Assembly (NCBI GenBank): GCA_965207225.1
Contig: CBDBLV010000005.1
Location: 736,001-800,000, forward strand
Direction of reading: 5' to 3'
DNA length: 64,000 nt
DNA from: Dehalococcoidia bacterium
GTDB taxonomy: Bacteria; Chloroflexota; Dehalococcoidia; Plut-88900
In this document: piece after piece, positions 1,602 to 55,458 of the stretch
Layout of the letters: each line of letters opens with the position of its first letter
Numbering within the stretch: position 1 is the stretch's first letter
Notes under the pieces: generated by a model
What the model saw: only the letters and a program-made list of their open reading frames with translations
Told to the model about the DNA's origin: nothing
The model's database searches: none
Position numbers and translations under genes: made by a program

Positions 1602-2400
1602 AAGTCTAGACCCGACACCAACCTTAAGGAGGAATCGAAAACTCAGGGGAACAACCCCGGCGCCCGGAGGACTCAACGCCCTAGCCCATCCCAATGCCTC
1701 CCCTCTCCCCGTAGGGGGCGACCGGCCAATCGCCCCCCTTACTAGGAGAGCAGGCTGCGGCACAAGCGACAGTCGCCATCTCCTCCACCCCAATCCCGAT
1801 CCATCACATTCCCCTGTCCCCCAGGCGATGGAAAGACGCCCTGGATAGAAGCCACAGCGGACCGGCCATTCCCCCGCCGAGAGATCCTCTCGGTGGCTGG
1901 TTAGCAGCGAGCTTACGCTATATCAAGCTAGGGGTGGGACGGACTGGCTATCCCCGCCCGGGACTGGCTCCCGGAGGTTGGCCCGTAGGCGAGCTTACGC
2001 CATATCAAGCAAGGGGAAAGGCGGGCCGGCTCTACCCCGCCGGGACCGGTTCCCGGGGGTCGGCCTGCCGGCGAGCTTGAGCCATATCAAGCGAGGGGTT
2101 TGCTGGACCACCCAGACCCGAGGGTGCGCGCCATGTAAAGTAACTCCCGGGGGCTACCCGCCGATCACTGGCCCCCACTGCGCCCTTAGGCGCCTGGGAG
2201 CGGGTCAAGGCTCGGATGTCTGCCCGGACAGCCCGTGCTCCCCATCAAGCATAAGGGTGCGGCCGGCTGCAAGTTCCTCCGCCTGCGTGGTGGAGCGGAC
2301 CCTCCATGGCCCCCGACAGCCGGAACACCGCAGAAGAGTGGAGGCCAACGGCTCGCCAGGTGCGTCTTCCATCGCCGCCCCAAAACCCCACCAGACAGAA
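1602..2400 (+). ncRNA. Candidate large structured ncRNA, copy 1 (family unknown)
   Basis: No credible ORF; own promoter; helix 1824-1844/2356-2376; three 82-nt modules; pairing-preserving differences versus copy at ~47.3-48.1 kb; ends approximate. Confidence 0.7.
1907..2098 (+). repeat. Three 28-nt direct repeats GCGAGCTTnnGCyATATCAAGCnAGGGG, period 82 nt
   Basis: Copies at 1907-1934, 1989-2016, 2071-2098. Confidence 0.95.
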
Positions 2401-45930: not shown

Positions 45931-46017
45931 TGGTGCCGAAGCCCGGACTCGAACCGGGACAGGGTTTCCCCCAGCGGTTTTTGAGACCGCCGCGTCTGCC
46001 TATTCCGCCACTTCGGC
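45931..46017 (-). tRNA. tRNA-Leu(CAA)
   Basis: GCCGAAG acceptor stem, GCGGT-CTCAAAA-ACCGC anticodon arm, long variable arm, GTTCGAGT, CCA. Confidence 0.95.
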
Positions 46018-46043
46018 CTAACCCGCCTGCGGGCTTAAATGGA

Positions 46044-46119
<76 letters not shown>

Positions 46120-47104: not shown

Positions 47105-47240
47105 CTCCCACAACAGTCTCGCTCCCATAGACCCGCCCCCCATCCCTTCTCCAACATCCAACCCCCAACCCCCTCCCCATCCATCATTCCCGACCCCGAT
47201 CGGAAATCCATCCCCCTCCCCCCCAAATGTGACATACCCC

Positions 47241-47269
47241 TTGACATGCAAACATTTGAGCCTTATATT
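47241..47269 (+). promoter_or_regulatory. sigma70-type promoter of repeated ncRNA-like element, copy 2
   Basis: TTGACA (47241-47246), 17 nt, TATATT (47264-47269). Confidence 0.85.
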
Positions 47270-47275
47270 TGTTCT

Positions 47276-48060
47276 AAGTCTAGACCCAACACTAATTTTA
47301 AGGAGGAACCAAAAACCCGGGGAAGCCCCCGAGACCCGACCCGAGGACTCAACGCCCTAGCCCATCCCAAGACCTCGCCCCTCTCTTGTAGGGGCGACCG
47401 GCCAATCGCCCCCCCTTGCGAGGAAGGAAGGTTGCGGCACAAGCGAACGTCGCCATCTCCTCATCCCACCGGGTCCCGTGCTCCTTCCCTGGTAGTCAGG
47501 CGATGGAAAGACGCCCTGGATAGAAGCCACAGCGGACCGGCCATTCCCCCGCCGAGAGACCCTCTCGGTGGCTGGTTAGCAGCGAGCTTACGCTATATCA
47601 AGCTAGGGGTGGGACGGACCGGCCATCCCCGCCCGGGACTGGCTTCCGGAGGTTGGCCCGTAGGCGAGCTTACGCCATATCAAGCAAGGGGAAATGCGGG
47701 CCGGCTCTACCCCGCCGGGACCGGTTCCCGGGGGTTGGCCCGCCGGCGAGCTTGCGCCATATCAAGCGAGGGGTTTGCTGGACCGCCCAGACCCGAGGGT
47801 GCGCGCCACGTAAAGTAACTCCCGGGGGCTACCCGCCGATCACTGGCCCCCACTGCGCCCTTAGGCGCCTGGGAGCGGGTCAAGGCCCGGCTGTCCGCCC
47901 GAACACCCGGGCACACATCGGGCAGAAGGGTGCGGCCGGCTGCAATCCGCCCCCCGGCGGACCTCCATGGCCCCCGACAGCCGAGCACCGCAAGAGAGTG
48001 GAGGCCACCGGCTCACCAGGTGCGTCTTCCATCGCCGCCCCAAAACCCACCAGACAGAAC
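47276..48060 (+). ncRNA. Candidate large structured ncRNA, copy 2 (family unknown)
   Basis: Paralog of 1602-2400; helix 47499-47519/48016-48036; ends approximate. Confidence 0.7.
47582..47773 (+). repeat. Three 28-nt direct repeats, period 82 nt
   Basis: Copies at 47582-47609, 47664-47691, 47746-47773. Confidence 0.95.
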
Positions 48061-48127
48061 GGAAACCAAAACCCACAACTGAATAGCAATCCGGTGTCTC
48101 CCCTGCTTCCCCAGCAGACACGCACAG

Positions 48128-48156
48128 TTGCCAGCCTCCGCCTTGATTTATATAAT
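48128..48156 (+). promoter_or_regulatory. sigma70-type promoter of speD-speE
   Basis: TTGCCA-17 nt-TATAAT. Confidence 0.75.
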
Positions 48157-50482: not shown

Positions 50483-50531
50483 TGGAGCGGGCGAAGGGAT
50501 TCGAACCCTCGACCTCCTGCTTGGGAAGCAG
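50483..50531 (-). repeat. att-type direct repeat: 49-bp copy of the tRNA-Gly 3' end
   Basis: Identical to 55384-55432. Confidence 0.92.
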
Positions 50532-52768: not shown

Positions 52769-55132
52769 TTGAACCAACCGGACGAGCGAGCCCGACGGAT
52801 ACGTGAGCTGGAGGAACGCCTTTCCCGCTTGAGCGAGGCCAGCCTCCGCATCAACGAGAGCCTGGACTTCGACACGGTGTTGCAGGAGGTGGTGGACAGC
52901 GCCCGGGCGCTGACGTCCTCGCGCTACGGAGCGATCACTATCCCGGGCGAAGTGTTTCGGCGCCCCACATTCATCGCCTCTGGACTCACTAGGGAGGAAC
53001 ACCAGGGGTTTTGGGACATGCCCGAGGGATTGGGATTCTTCGAGTATCTCAGCGGCCTTGAGGAACCCCTGCGGGTCTCAGACATAGCGAGCCATCTTAA
53101 GGCACTAAACATGCCGGATTTCCTGCCCTCGGTACAAGTGGATTCCGTGCTGGTGGCCCCAATTCGTCACCTGGGGGTCGGAGTCGGCACCATCTACCTC
53201 GCCCATGAGCCGGGTGGCGGGAGGTTCACCCAGGAGGATGAGGAGACGCTGGTGATGTTCGCATCCCAGGCGGCATTGGTCATCGTCAATGCCCGGAGGC
53301 ACCGCGAGGAACGGCGGGCCAGGGCCGACCTTGAGACGCTCATGGACACCTCTCCCGTCGGCGTCGCAGTCTTCGACGCCGCGACAGGAGAGCCAAAGTC
53401 ATTCAACCGTGAGGCCGGCAGGATCGTCGACACCCTGCGCAATCCCGATCAGACGCCGGAGGACCTGTTGGAGCTGATGACCTTCAAGCGTGCAGACGGG
53501 AGGGAGATATCCCTGCGTGAGTTTCCGATGACCGAGCTCCTTAGCATCGGCGAGACGTTGCGGGCCGAGGAGATCGTCATGCGGGTCCCTGACGGGCGGA
53601 GCGTCACGGTGCTGCTCAACGCGACGCCCATTCTCTCCGAGGAGGGTGTAGTGGAGTCGATGATCGTCACCCTCCAGGACATGGCTGCAGTGCAGGAGAT
53701 GGAGCGAATGCGGGCGGAGTTCCTGGGCATGGTAAGCCACGAACTGCGGACTCCCCTGACCTCTATCAAGGGCTCTGCCTCTGCCATCATGGATGCCGGT
53801 CCGGATCTCGACCCCGCCGTGGTCCGCCAGTTTGTACGCATAATCGGAGACCAGGCGGAGCACATGCATGCCCTGGTCACCGATCTTCTGGACGTGGCCC
53901 GCATTGAGACAGGCACGCTGCCGGTAAGTCCCGAACCTGCCGACATGGCCGTACTGCTGGACCGTGCGAGAAATAGCTTCACCAATGCGGGAGGAAAAAC
54001 CAAGCTGGCCATCGAGGTGGAGCCGGGTCTGCCACTGGTAATGGCTGACAGGCGACGCATCGTCCAGGTACTCGCCAACCTATTGTCCAACGCGGCCCGC
54101 AACTCCCCGCAATCGTCCGTCATCAGGGTGGGCGCGGTGCGGGATGGCGTTCATGTCGCGGTCTCGGTGGCAGACGAAGGGCGCGGGATTCCTGCTGAGA
54201 GGCTACCCGAGCTGTTTCGGAAGTTCTCTAGGGCGCAGTCTGAGGAGCAGGCAGGGGACACGGGGTTGGGCCTCTCCATCTGCAAGGGCATAGTGGAAGC
54301 ACACGGTGGCCGCATCTGGGCCGAGAGCGACGGCCCTGGCACGGGGGCTTGTTTCACCTTCACGCTTCCATCGATCGAGGACTCCAAGGGCGGTGCGGTA
54401 AGCCGATTTCCTTCGATATCGACGCCCGAGGTGGGAGAGATGGAGAGTCGGGTGCGGGTTCTCGCGGTGGATGACGACCCCAATGATCTTCGCTACGTTC
54501 GGGACACTCTCGCCAGGTCGGGCTTCGACCCGGTCGTGACCGGGGAGCCGGAGGAGGTGGTTCGCCTCGTGGAAGACGAGAGGCCGGAACTCGTGCTGCT
54601 GGACCTGATGCTCCCCGGGGCGGACGGAATCGAGCTGATGAAGGACATCCTCGACGTGGCCGACGTGCCGGTTATCTTCCTGTCCGCCTACGGGCGGGAG
54701 GAGCAGATCGCCAGGGCCTTCGACGCAGGGGCCGACGACTACGTAGTAAAACCATTTTCGGCGACGGAGCTTTCGGCCAGGATCAGGGCGGCCCTGCGCC
54801 GTAGGGCGGTCTCAGAGCCGTCGGAGCCCTACGTTTTGGGCGCCCTGACCGTCGACTACGCCAGGCGCAGAGTGGTCCTGGCTGGCCGTCCTCTACATCT
54901 CACCCCGATCGAGTACCGAGTGCTGGCCGAGCTTTCAGCCAACGCTGGGAGGGTGCTGACCTACGAGCGTCTTTTGGGCCGGGTGTGGGATGGGAAGGGC
55001 GATGACGATGTGCGGCCCATGCGCACCATCGTCAGCAAGCTCCGCCGCAAACTCGGTGATGCCGCAGACAACCCCACTTACATATTCACCGAACCCCGTG
55101 TCGGCTTCCGGATGCTGGAGGGGGAGGCGTAG
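52769..55132 (+). CDS. Hybrid GAF-PAS-histidine kinase-receiver-OmpR wHTH protein
   Basis: SHELRTPL, NLLSNA, DEGRG, GLGL, VDDD, LDLMLPG, KPF, LTPIEYR, LRRKLG..YIFTEPRVG. Confidence 0.92.
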   Translation: MNQPDERARRIRELEERLSRLSEASLRINESLDFDTVLQEVVDSARALTSSRYGAITIPGEVFRRPTFIASGLTREEHQGFWDMPEGLGFFEYLSGLEEPLRVSDIASHLKALNMPDFLPSVQVDSVLVAPIRHLGVGVGTIYLAHEPGGGRFTQEDEETLVMFASQAALVIVNARRHREERRARADLETLMDTSPVGVAVFDAATGEPKSFNREAGRIVDTLRNPDQTPEDLLELMTFKRADGREISLREFPMTELLSIGETLRAEEIVMRVPDGRSVTVLLNATPILSEEGVVESMIVTLQDMAAVQEMERMRAEFLGMVSHELRTPLTSIKGSASAIMDAGPDLDPAVVRQFVRIIGDQAEHMHALVTDLLDVARIETGTLPVSPEPADMAVLLDRARNSFTNAGGKTKLAIEVEPGLPLVMADRRRIVQVLANLLSNAARNSPQSSVIRVGAVRDGVHVAVSVADEGRGIPAERLPELFRKFSRAQSEEQAGDTGLGLSICKGIVEAHGGRIWAESDGPGTGACFTFTLPSIEDSKGGAVSRFPSISTPEVGEMESRVRVLAVDDDPNDLRYVRDTLARSGFDPVVTGEPEEVVRLVEDERPELVLLDLMLPGADGIELMKDILDVADVPVIFLSAYGREEQIARAFDAGADDYVVKPFSATELSARIRAALRRRAVSEPSEPYVLGALTVDYARRRVVLAGRPLHLTPIEYRVLAELSANAGRVLTYERLLGRVWDGKGDDDVRPMRTIVSKLRRKLGDAADNPTYIFTEPRVGFRMLEGEA

Positions 55133-55383: not shown

Positions 55384-55458
55384 TGGAGCGGGCGAAGGGA
55401 TTCGAACCCTCGACCTCCTGCTTGGGAAGCAGACACTCTACCGCTGAGTTACGCCCGC
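55384..55458 (-). tRNA. tRNA-Gly(CCC)
   Basis: GCGGGCG acceptor, CTGCT-TCCCA-AGCAG anticodon arm, GTTCGAAT, CCA. Confidence 0.95.

Follow-up and report, generated by a model that had tools for sequence, protein, structure and literature searches.

Three tandem modules of 82 nucleotides (nt) occur at each of two places in a 64,000-nt stretch of the genome of a Dehalococcoidia bacterium (assembly GCA_965207225.1, contig CBDBLV010000005.1, positions 736,001 to 800,000 of the forward strand), referred to below as the window. We have found that these modules are one swappable inner part of a non-coding RNA gene of approximately 830 nt, which lies at about 1602-2430 on the + strand and is present in a second copy at about 47276-48090. 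In the reading that we favor, and to which we give a probability of roughly 0.6, the modules are structural repeats of variable copy number within an inner domain that large non-coding RNA genes of this kind exchange, and the family to which the gene belongs is confined to one genus and numbers about 47 units per genome, each with its own promoter. The original prediction, which was made from the letters of the window and treated the modules as self-contained pseudoknots, missed this context, namely that they are an exchangeable sub-domain of a larger, multicopy RNA gene.

Fold and copy number of the 82-nt modules

The modules are marked by a 28-nt motif, GCGAGCTTNNGCYATATCAAGCNAGGGG, which a pattern search located six times on the + strand with 0 mismatches (starting at 1907, 1989, 2071, 47582, 47664 and 47746), against a mean of 0.00 matches in 100 dinucleotide shuffles. 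Tandem Repeats Finder reported a period of 82, with 2.4 copies and 80-81% matches, at both 1907-2099 and 47582-47774, and the sixfold occurrence of the motif at intervals of 82 nt was thus borne out by both methods. In the first copy, module 1 (1853-1934, + strand) consists of an outer helix, a CCCCC bulge, an inner hairpin (CCGAGAG/CTCTCGG) and the motif at 1907-1934; module 2 occupies 1935-2016 (+), with its motif at 1989-2016, and module 3, an extra copy that is 76% identical to module 2, occupies 2017-2098 (+), with its motif at 2071-2098. The helices that had been named beforehand can be read directly in the sequence. When compared without gaps the three units of copy 1 are 57%, 76% and 60% identical to each other, whole 82-nt units show 81-83% BLAST identity to each other, and units at the same position in copy 1 and copy 2 are 95-99% identical. 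A clustered regularly interspaced short palindromic repeat (CRISPR) array was ruled out, because the 54-nt intervals that would have to be its spacers are homologous to one another and share a fold; furthermore, there are only two to three units per locus.

The fold was followed through an alignment of 63 modules, making up 56 distinct rows, that were taken from eight species and from 27 loci with the module-bearing class of inner domain, here called type A. Thirty loci were fetched, of which three (L144, L156 and L161) were dropped since the anchor patterns failed, and one congener (G004) gave no type-A match at E <= 1e-20. The outer helix of 11 base pairs (bp) was found to be paired in 94.2% of the cells, with four of its 11 pairs changed on both sides and many pairs switching between G-C and G-U. 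Compensatory changes were also present in the inner hairpin of 7 bp, which was paired in 86.2% of the cells and whose pair 31-44, for example, reads AU in 33 of the rows and GC in another 22. In a control in which the 3' partners were slid by one to three columns, pairing fell to 30-48%. It had been proposed that the intervals differ in sequence but fold alike, and this is what the 63 modules show, as both the outer and the inner helix keep their pairing. Among the 616 cells of the outer helix, 158 are G-U and 36 are non-standard; since a G-U pair would be a mismatch if the other strand were read, it is the + strand RNA that is conserved, and the pairing is kept in a strand-specific manner at the RNA level.

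The motif itself was expected to form a GCUU/AAGC hairpin, an expectation that the same alignment did not uphold. The hairpin (AGCUU/AAGCU) was paired in 74.1% of the cells with zero compensatory changes, and in nine of the 56 distinct modules its G-C pair was replaced by a non-standard pair, which reads A opposite A in those rows that were inspected. An alternative GCG/CGC stem of the motif is invariant. Given this absence of covariation in the hairpin, the 28-nt motif is regarded as conserved in sequence and not as a proven fold. The CCCC of the bulge and the GGGG behind the motif are complementary in almost every module and are near-invariant, and since they offer no informative variation among the 63 modules, covariation says nothing for or against a pseudoknot. 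Application of RNAalifold to the type-A domain and to its isolated 3' half gave long-range pairs that were partly spurious, and for this reason only local helices with compensatory changes were used.

The claim that there are three modules holds for both copies in the window, but the number is not a fixed one: two modules were found at 18 of the 27 type-A loci and three at the other nine, which are spread over four species. As two modules are present at 18 of the loci and module 3 resembles module 2 most closely, the third module stems from a recent, lineage-specific tandem duplication and does not define these loci. The remainder of the type-A inner domain (2099-2355, + strand) holds several further hairpins that were aligned in the 27 loci. 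In the 3' half of the domain seven of the 50 predicted pairs are kept through two-sided changes (for example columns 97-111 and 194-222), and a singleton paralog, read from one representative, has this 3' half without the modules.

A promoted RNA unit and its family

The sequence at 1544-2428 recurs at 47219-48085 with 88% identity. Each copy is preceded on the + strand by a strong promoter of the sigma-70 type, made up of TTGACA, a 17-nt spacer and TATATT, located at 1567-1595 for copy 1 and at 47241-47269 for copy 2, both of which scored 11/12 in a consensus scan. The former was the sole promoter-like site within 1300-2700, and its two hexamers are retained in copy 2 and in the paralogs of the same promoter class. 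Judging from the sequence, transcription of copy 1 probably starts near 1602. About 25 nt from this presumed start is AAGGAGGA (1626-1633, +), a Shine-Dalgarno (SD)-like site that opens the part common to all members and, with three single-base variants, heads the 5' domain of the listed members. The site can pair with CCTCCTT, with which the 16S rRNA of the genome ends (GGATCACCTCCTTTCT, ...CACCTCCTTTCT), and no ATG, GTG or TTG could be read at a usable distance behind it in copy 1.

The 5' domain (1626-1820, +), which gives profile matches and measures 195 nt in copy 1, ranges from 70 to 308 nt across the family, and a nested series of sizes runs from 95 to 333 nt. It contains long-range helices, among them CAGGGGAA at 1644-1651 with TTCCCCTG at 1809-1816, whose partners co-change between members in the aligned rows, and GGAGGA with TCCTCC. 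Behind it lies the 5' strand of a closing helix, CCAGGCGATGGAAAGACGCCCTGG (1821-1844, +), which pairs with CCAGGTGCGTCTTCCATCGCC at 2356-2376 (+) on the far side of the inner domain. Each of the 40 members tested has this duplex, which is 15-25 bp long with energies of -30.6 to -47.1 kcal/mol; the first ten pairs do not vary, and the distal half differs between inner-domain types yet remains complementary. The unit is completed by a C/A-rich, G-poor tail (2377-2429, +) that ends in CACAACCGAATAA. The body of copy 2 extends over 47300-48086 (+), with AAGGAGGA at 47300-47307, the closing helix at 47496-47519 with 48016-48036, and the tail reaching to 48086. Open reading frames (ORFs) overlap the unit; a protein-coding reading was nevertheless rejected, as indels of 1, 2 and 12 nt between copy 1 and copy 2 lead to the conclusion that the unit is non-coding, and the inner domains of another class, type B, are 291-295 nt long.

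Some smaller elements were noted in and around the units. Just 5' of the promoter of copy 1, the region 1407-1530 holds a 19-bp hairpin followed by a T-run (1417-1458, +) and G/C-rich palindromes at about 1466-1502; repeat types of this region adjoin many family members genome-wide and often provide a terminator behind the tail. A mini-hairpin, CCCCGAGA(A/C)GTCGGGG, is an optional insertion at two places of the 5' domain (L184, L174, L175, L172, L202 and others) and is also found inside other intergenic repeats of the genome, in the manner of a tiny mobile hairpin. At L187 (G000:C4:597931-598893), where the 5' domain is 308 nt long, the central part of that domain (GGACTCAACG...GCGGCACAAGCGA...CCATCTCC) is in tandem duplicate, which indicates that duplication of a sub-domain is not confined to the 82-nt modules. 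In five members (L171, L185, L183, L200 and L204) a block ...CCGAACGAGTACACC... is located 40-70 nt behind the tail, a position to be compared with 2430-2500 of the window. The block can form a hairpin with upstream sequence, abuts the -35 box (TTGAAC, TTGACC or TTGCAA) of the promoter of the next gene, and might act as a weak terminator or as a shared operator or UP-like site.

When the unit was compared with its own genome (4.03 Mb in five contigs) by BLAST, 52 matches were obtained, in which the first ~245 nt and the last ~60 nt recur with different middles. Profiles built from this first match set matched the 5' domain 54 times and the 3' end 42 times. Both strands of the closing helix were located at 41 loci, and these 41 units together with six variants bring the family to about 47. 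Its members, which are 0.5-0.95 kb long, share a plan that begins with a promoter belonging to one of three classes, followed by a leader 30-40 nt long, AAGGAGGA, the 5' domain and the closing helix, and continues with an inner domain of 182-537 nt, the return strand and a C/A-rich tail ending ...CCCCACAACYGAAYAA. The inner domains fall into ten clusters (of 14, 10 and five loci, five pairs and two singletons) that are unrelated or distantly related, and the modules belong to the cluster of five loci, which is type A. All of the units are intergenic and cluster with other repeat families, and about a dozen are followed by a strong terminator hairpin that can be read from the sequence. The six variant loci (G000:C2:179517, C3:167698, C3:256171, C5:1005062, C5:1331091 and C5:1737100), none of them in the window, have the same closing helix and related inner domains of ~340-450 nt, together with a different 5' part, composed of AAGGAG-TTT-ATG and an open frame, and no C/A tail. 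One of the 41 units (G000:C1:67051-69660) is split by an insertion of ~2.6 kb that by eye encodes an IstB-like ATPase on the other strand.

The family is restricted to a single genus. In BLAST searches with the whole unit, eight of eight other species of the genus were matched and none of 32 other genera (three of the same family and 29 from as many further families within the class). When the 5' core was made into a covariance model and searched with Infernal's stricter filters, the source genome and five of five sampled congeners were matched and none of 145 genomes from the rest of the class. A similar model of the modules, the construction of which had been suggested in the original prediction, found 12 modules in the source genome, all within its five type-A loci, and its convincing matches were confined to the genus; two matches outside it, at 25-26 bits, are regarded as chance. 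A crude 16-mer scan of public genome contigs returned 114 rows, mostly chance matches in unrelated phyla, and all records that it matched more than once were of Dehalococcoidia. Among the named holders of near-identical sequence most are sponge metagenomes, and the source bacterium is probably sponge-dwelling.

Searches for known RNA families and for previous descriptions were negative. Two family patterns had no match in JGI metagenome contigs, and the whole window had no Rfam match at the gathering score beyond three tRNAs. When both strands of 1400-2600 were searched with cmscan, admitting E values as high as 10, there were 39 weak matches, none of which was to a hepatitis delta virus (HDV)-type or other ribozyme or to a riboswitch family, and 13 representatives covering the ten inner-domain clusters had no Rfam match at E up to 0.05. 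In these searches no covariance-model match was seen to OLE, GOLLD, ROOL, HEARO, raiA or group II introns. No description of such an RNA family was found in the literature listings and the opening lines of abstracts surveyed, and within that survey the joining of features of composite interspersed repeats with those of large structured RNAs is undescribed.

Genomic setting and replacement of inner domains

Units of the family lie upstream of co-oriented genes. With gene neighbors called by a simple filter based on ORFs and third-codon-position G+C content (GC3), the next downstream gene was co-oriented at 35 of 39 loci and the upstream gene at only 16 of 39. One of the four exceptions proved to be a miscall, as the co-oriented ORF encodes a peptidase S58 and the antisense ORF belongs to no family, and the co-oriented count is therefore 36 of 39. 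The median distance from the unit to the next co-oriented gene is ~140 nt, and only one of the 37 loci with both neighbors called lies between convergent genes. The genes downstream of family units are ordinary and unrelated; at the five type-A loci of the source genome they encode FolD, SpeD and SpeE, a major facilitator superfamily (MFS) transporter, RibF and the peptidase S58. A separate promoter (48128-48156, 11/12) is situated behind copy 2, ahead of speD.

Orthologous loci were compared between species. At the folD locus of the congener G008 the flanks are 93-96% identical to those of copy 1, and the unit between them is a two-module variant with 76% identity. A second orthologous locus holds a type-B domain in the source genome and a type-F domain in G008, the latter being 96-98% identical to type-F domains elsewhere in the source genome. 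At the nusA locus a type-B domain was found in three species and a different domain of ~390 nt in G005, and there is no unit in G002 and G006, which have 34 nt instead of ~1 kb. Where there is an insert, its end abuts the -35 box of the nusA promoter. From these three comparisons it was concluded that units are gained or lost and that inner domains are replaced between loci, such that different species carry different domains at the same place. No target-site duplication was seen between filled and empty nusA sites, although only one site was compared and the insert is composite. No transposase or reverse transcriptase gene adjoins any member; four reverse transcriptase genes lie elsewhere in the genome, which gave no TnpB-type match.

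Two tRNA genes, tRNA-Leu(CAA) and tRNA-Phe(GAA), are located at 45931-46119 on the - strand, ~1.1 kb upstream of copy 2, and at the nusA locus a tRNA gene is likewise found just upstream of the unit. Elsewhere in the window an exact 49-bp repeat occurs at 50483-50531 and 55384-55432, with one arm in a tRNA-Gly(CCC) gene (55384-55458). The ~4.9 kb between the arms includes a gene for a hybrid histidine kinase/response regulator (52769-55132), and one may guess at an integrated element, though a quick look found no integrase.

Proposed function, competing explanations and significance

The RNA may function as a stable, structured platform on which the modules would serve as repeated docking sites. 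Its constant parts would provide for expression, stability and processing: AAGGAGGA at the 5' end may, by analogy with a STAB-SD element, bind the 30S subunit and block RNase J, the closing helix may be an RNase III-type processing stem or a clamping stem, and the G-poor tail is a candidate binding site for a protein or loading site for Rho. The inner domain would then be the working part of the RNA, and in type A each module may present the invariant 28-nt sequence on a rigid bulged hairpin, with the two or three modules offering equivalent docking sites to one partner, which might be a second RNA or a protein. RNase III usually acts on regular helices of some 20 bp, and the closing helix has this form. 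The processing stems of 16S and 23S rRNA precursors likewise consist of a long helix that flanks a large structured RNA transcribed from a strong promoter; the comparison with the closing helix was made by reading 16S flanks only, and cleavage of the latter is putative. Both nucleases are encoded in the genome, RNase J by a gene with a TIGR00649 match of 561.7 bits (cut-off 400) and RNase III by one with a match of 234.2 bits (cut-off 166). It is from the likeness to STAB-SD, the helix of about 20 bp, the G-poor tail and the presence of these two genes that the reading of the constant parts as a shared platform was drawn. In PMC4113751, binding of the 30S subunit at the non-initiating SD-like site of the cry3A mRNA of Bacillus thuringiensis is described as blocking RNase J. 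Like AAGGAGGA, that site is near the 5' end, has no translation start behind it and is complementary to 16S rRNA; it stabilizes an mRNA (PMC4113751), whereas here it would putatively be a non-coding RNA that is protected.

Several results weigh against this interpretation. The folding energy of 1857-2098, -116.8 kcal/mol, is close to that of its shuffles (-112.3 +/- 5.6, z -0.81), and the opposite strand of the three-module stretch gave a z of -0.73; as there is no thermodynamic signal in this G+C-rich sequence, the case is one of covariation. Paralogs and close species are not independent samples, however, and the shuffle controls of the module alignment therefore overstate significance. No pairing within the 28-nt motif is supported by that alignment, and a search of the whole genome for extended complements to the motif was negative; counts of conserved-block 10-mers on both strands revealed no obvious excess beyond the family's own copies, which were not subtracted. 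The lack of a complementary RNA target makes a protein or a tertiary contact more likely, and with neither internal pairing nor such a target the idea of a docking site is left with sequence invariance as its sole basis. Moreover, no intrinsic terminator was predicted on the + strand behind the tail of copy 1, or behind copy 2. The 3' end given here for the RNA is provisional, and transcription may run on into the gene that follows.

The signs of transcription should also be read with caution. The RNA body is matched, at 80-99% identity, by contigs assembled from two metatranscriptome libraries, which come from two studies (23 contigs in X23, four of them at 99% identity at least and one of 515 nt at depth 24; five contigs in X22), but because DNA can be present in such libraries these are a hint of transcription and not proof. 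The stretches 1300-1628 and 2428-2700 had no cover from two RNA-library runs and were covered by two other runs; given loose ends at 1661-1667 and 2322 and flanks that differ between strains, no conclusion was based on these gaps in cover. The two long contigs of X23 both extend over 1818-2330, which we read as assembly breaks at sequence shared by paralogs and not as RNA ends. Finally, the genus restriction, the high copy number, the mosaic evolution and the presence or absence of units at orthologous sites also fit a selfish repeat.

That the unit is a selfish composite interspersed repeat, similar to BOX or Correia elements, is the main rival, and we consider it possible but doubtful. The constant ends and the closing helix would in that case be the inverted repeats of a mobile unit and the modules boxB-like internal subunits that expand and contract by slippage, with the RNA folds being by-products, or serving only the spread of the element, and having at most side effects on neighboring genes. 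Such an explanation accommodates about 47 intergenic copies per genome, the occurrence in one genus, two or three tandem units between constant ends, a closing helix that is an inverted repeat of 15-25 bp, a site upstream of nusA that is filled in four species and empty in two, and the clustering of units with other repeat families, one copy being itself split by an insertion. It also has a precedent in the BOX elements of Streptococcus pneumoniae and S. suis, which are described in PMC3049150 as having the build boxA-boxB(n)-boxC and, like the units studied here, as multicopy, intergenic and confined to close relatives, with constant ends and variable internal tandem subunits. BOX elements are transcribed, and their inverted repeats pair in the RNA form, with the internal unit folding largely alone so that its number can vary (PMC3049150).

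Other features do not agree with a selfish repeat. The inverted repeat is not terminal but internal, with the conserved 5' domain and the tail outside it, and at the one nusA site compared there is no target-site duplication. A near-consensus promoter is present on each unit, no transposase or reverse transcriptase gene lies beside the members, with no TnpB-type match in the genome, and the strand-specific G-U pairs and compensatory changes point to selection on the RNA. Correia elements, which can supply promoters to neighboring genes, are about 100-150 bp long and have no structured inner domain. In Neisseria, RNase III cuts transcripts of these elements at the inverted repeats, which are paired (PMC3049150); for the closing helix such cutting is putative. 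According to that source, BOX, RUP and insertion sequence (IS) elements are over-represented between convergent genes, a placement opposite to that found here, where one of 37 loci is convergent and 36 of 39 are co-oriented (PMC3049150). BOX elements are, furthermore, shorter than ~300 nt and have no promoter of their own (PMC3049150), whereas the present units are three to six times as long, at 0.5-0.95 kb, and have their own promoter, conserved sequence beyond the inverted repeat and ten inner domains.

An unlikely alternative is that of a cis-acting leader, in which the unit would be a giant 5' untranslated region or an upstream transcription unit controlling folD, speD and other genes by attenuation, processing or promoter interference, and the modules might be ligand- or protein-sensing aptamers. 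The co-orientation with the next gene (36 of 39, at a median of ~140 nt), the lack of a predicted intrinsic terminator behind either window copy and the end of the nusA-locus unit at the -35 box of the gene's promoter are consistent with a leader, as is the local pairing of the closing-helix 5' strand in some types (CGATGGA/TCCATCG), which would allow alternative folds. However, type A precedes the unrelated genes named above, a given gene may be preceded by one domain type in one species and by another, or by no unit, in a sister species, and no riboswitch model matches; in addition, downstream genes have promoters of their own, such as that at 48128-48156, and a strong terminator hairpin stands behind roughly a dozen members.

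The least probable explanation, and one to which we give very little credence, is that of the original prediction, by which each 82-nt unit is a self-contained pseudoknot acting as an aptamer or as a small HDV-like self-cleaving ribozyme: the nearly invariant CCCC and GGGG are complementary and the linker is presumably long enough for them to pair, but covariation is uninformative here, no HDV-type or other ribozyme or riboswitch model matched 1400-2600 at E up to 10, the likeness to HDV-like ribozymes is a loose one of strand order with P1.1 and L3 absent (as that prediction itself stated) and without a supported pseudoknot, the modules number two or three, and they never occur outside type-A units (12 of 12 matches). 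A riboswitch for SAM, folate or polyamines, which had also been put forward, found no Rfam aptamer match, and the type-A loci precede genes of no one pathway; the idea most likely reflects the neighboring folD and speD/speE genes. A multivalent binding array or assembly unit, suggested at the same time, is still a reasonable reading.

Large structured RNAs such as OLE, GOLLD, ROOL, raiA and HEARO are represented in Rfam and are mostly single-copy; HEARO is multicopy and tied to a nuclease gene. These RNAs resemble the present units in being non-coding, 0.5-0.9 kb long and narrow in range, with many covarying helices, but to our knowledge none of them combines a constant handle with interchangeable large inner domains. 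Going further than our preferred reading of copy-number-variable repeats in an exchangeable domain, one may tentatively picture an RNA "cassette" system, in which ~47 promoted units with a common handle carry ~10 domains exchanged by recombination and the modules are multivalent docking units tunable in copy number. The handle, made up of AAGGAGGA, the 5' domain, the clamping helix and the C/A tail, would in such a system give stability, processing and a common partner. Were this true, the family would be categorically new, the modules would be the RNA counterpart of repeat proteins and a new organizing principle for bacterial non-coding RNA, and dealings with the sponge host could be involved.

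Roughly 25-30 kb of the 4-Mb genome is devoted to this family. If its members are selfish repeats, they would be the largest and most elaborate promoter-carrying structured repeats known to us, and their placement just 5' of the promoters of housekeeping genes would matter for gene expression. If they are working RNAs, they would form a new class of large bacterial non-coding RNA, with a constant handle, many swappable structured bodies and a copy number otherwise seen only for mobile elements. The family is a natural test of how far the folds of large RNAs tolerate the swapping of domains and the duplication of modules, and it provides RNA structural biology with about ten new candidate folds, for each of which the family itself supplies covariation data. 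A further question is what use an uncultured lineage of Dehalococcoidia makes of such RNAs.

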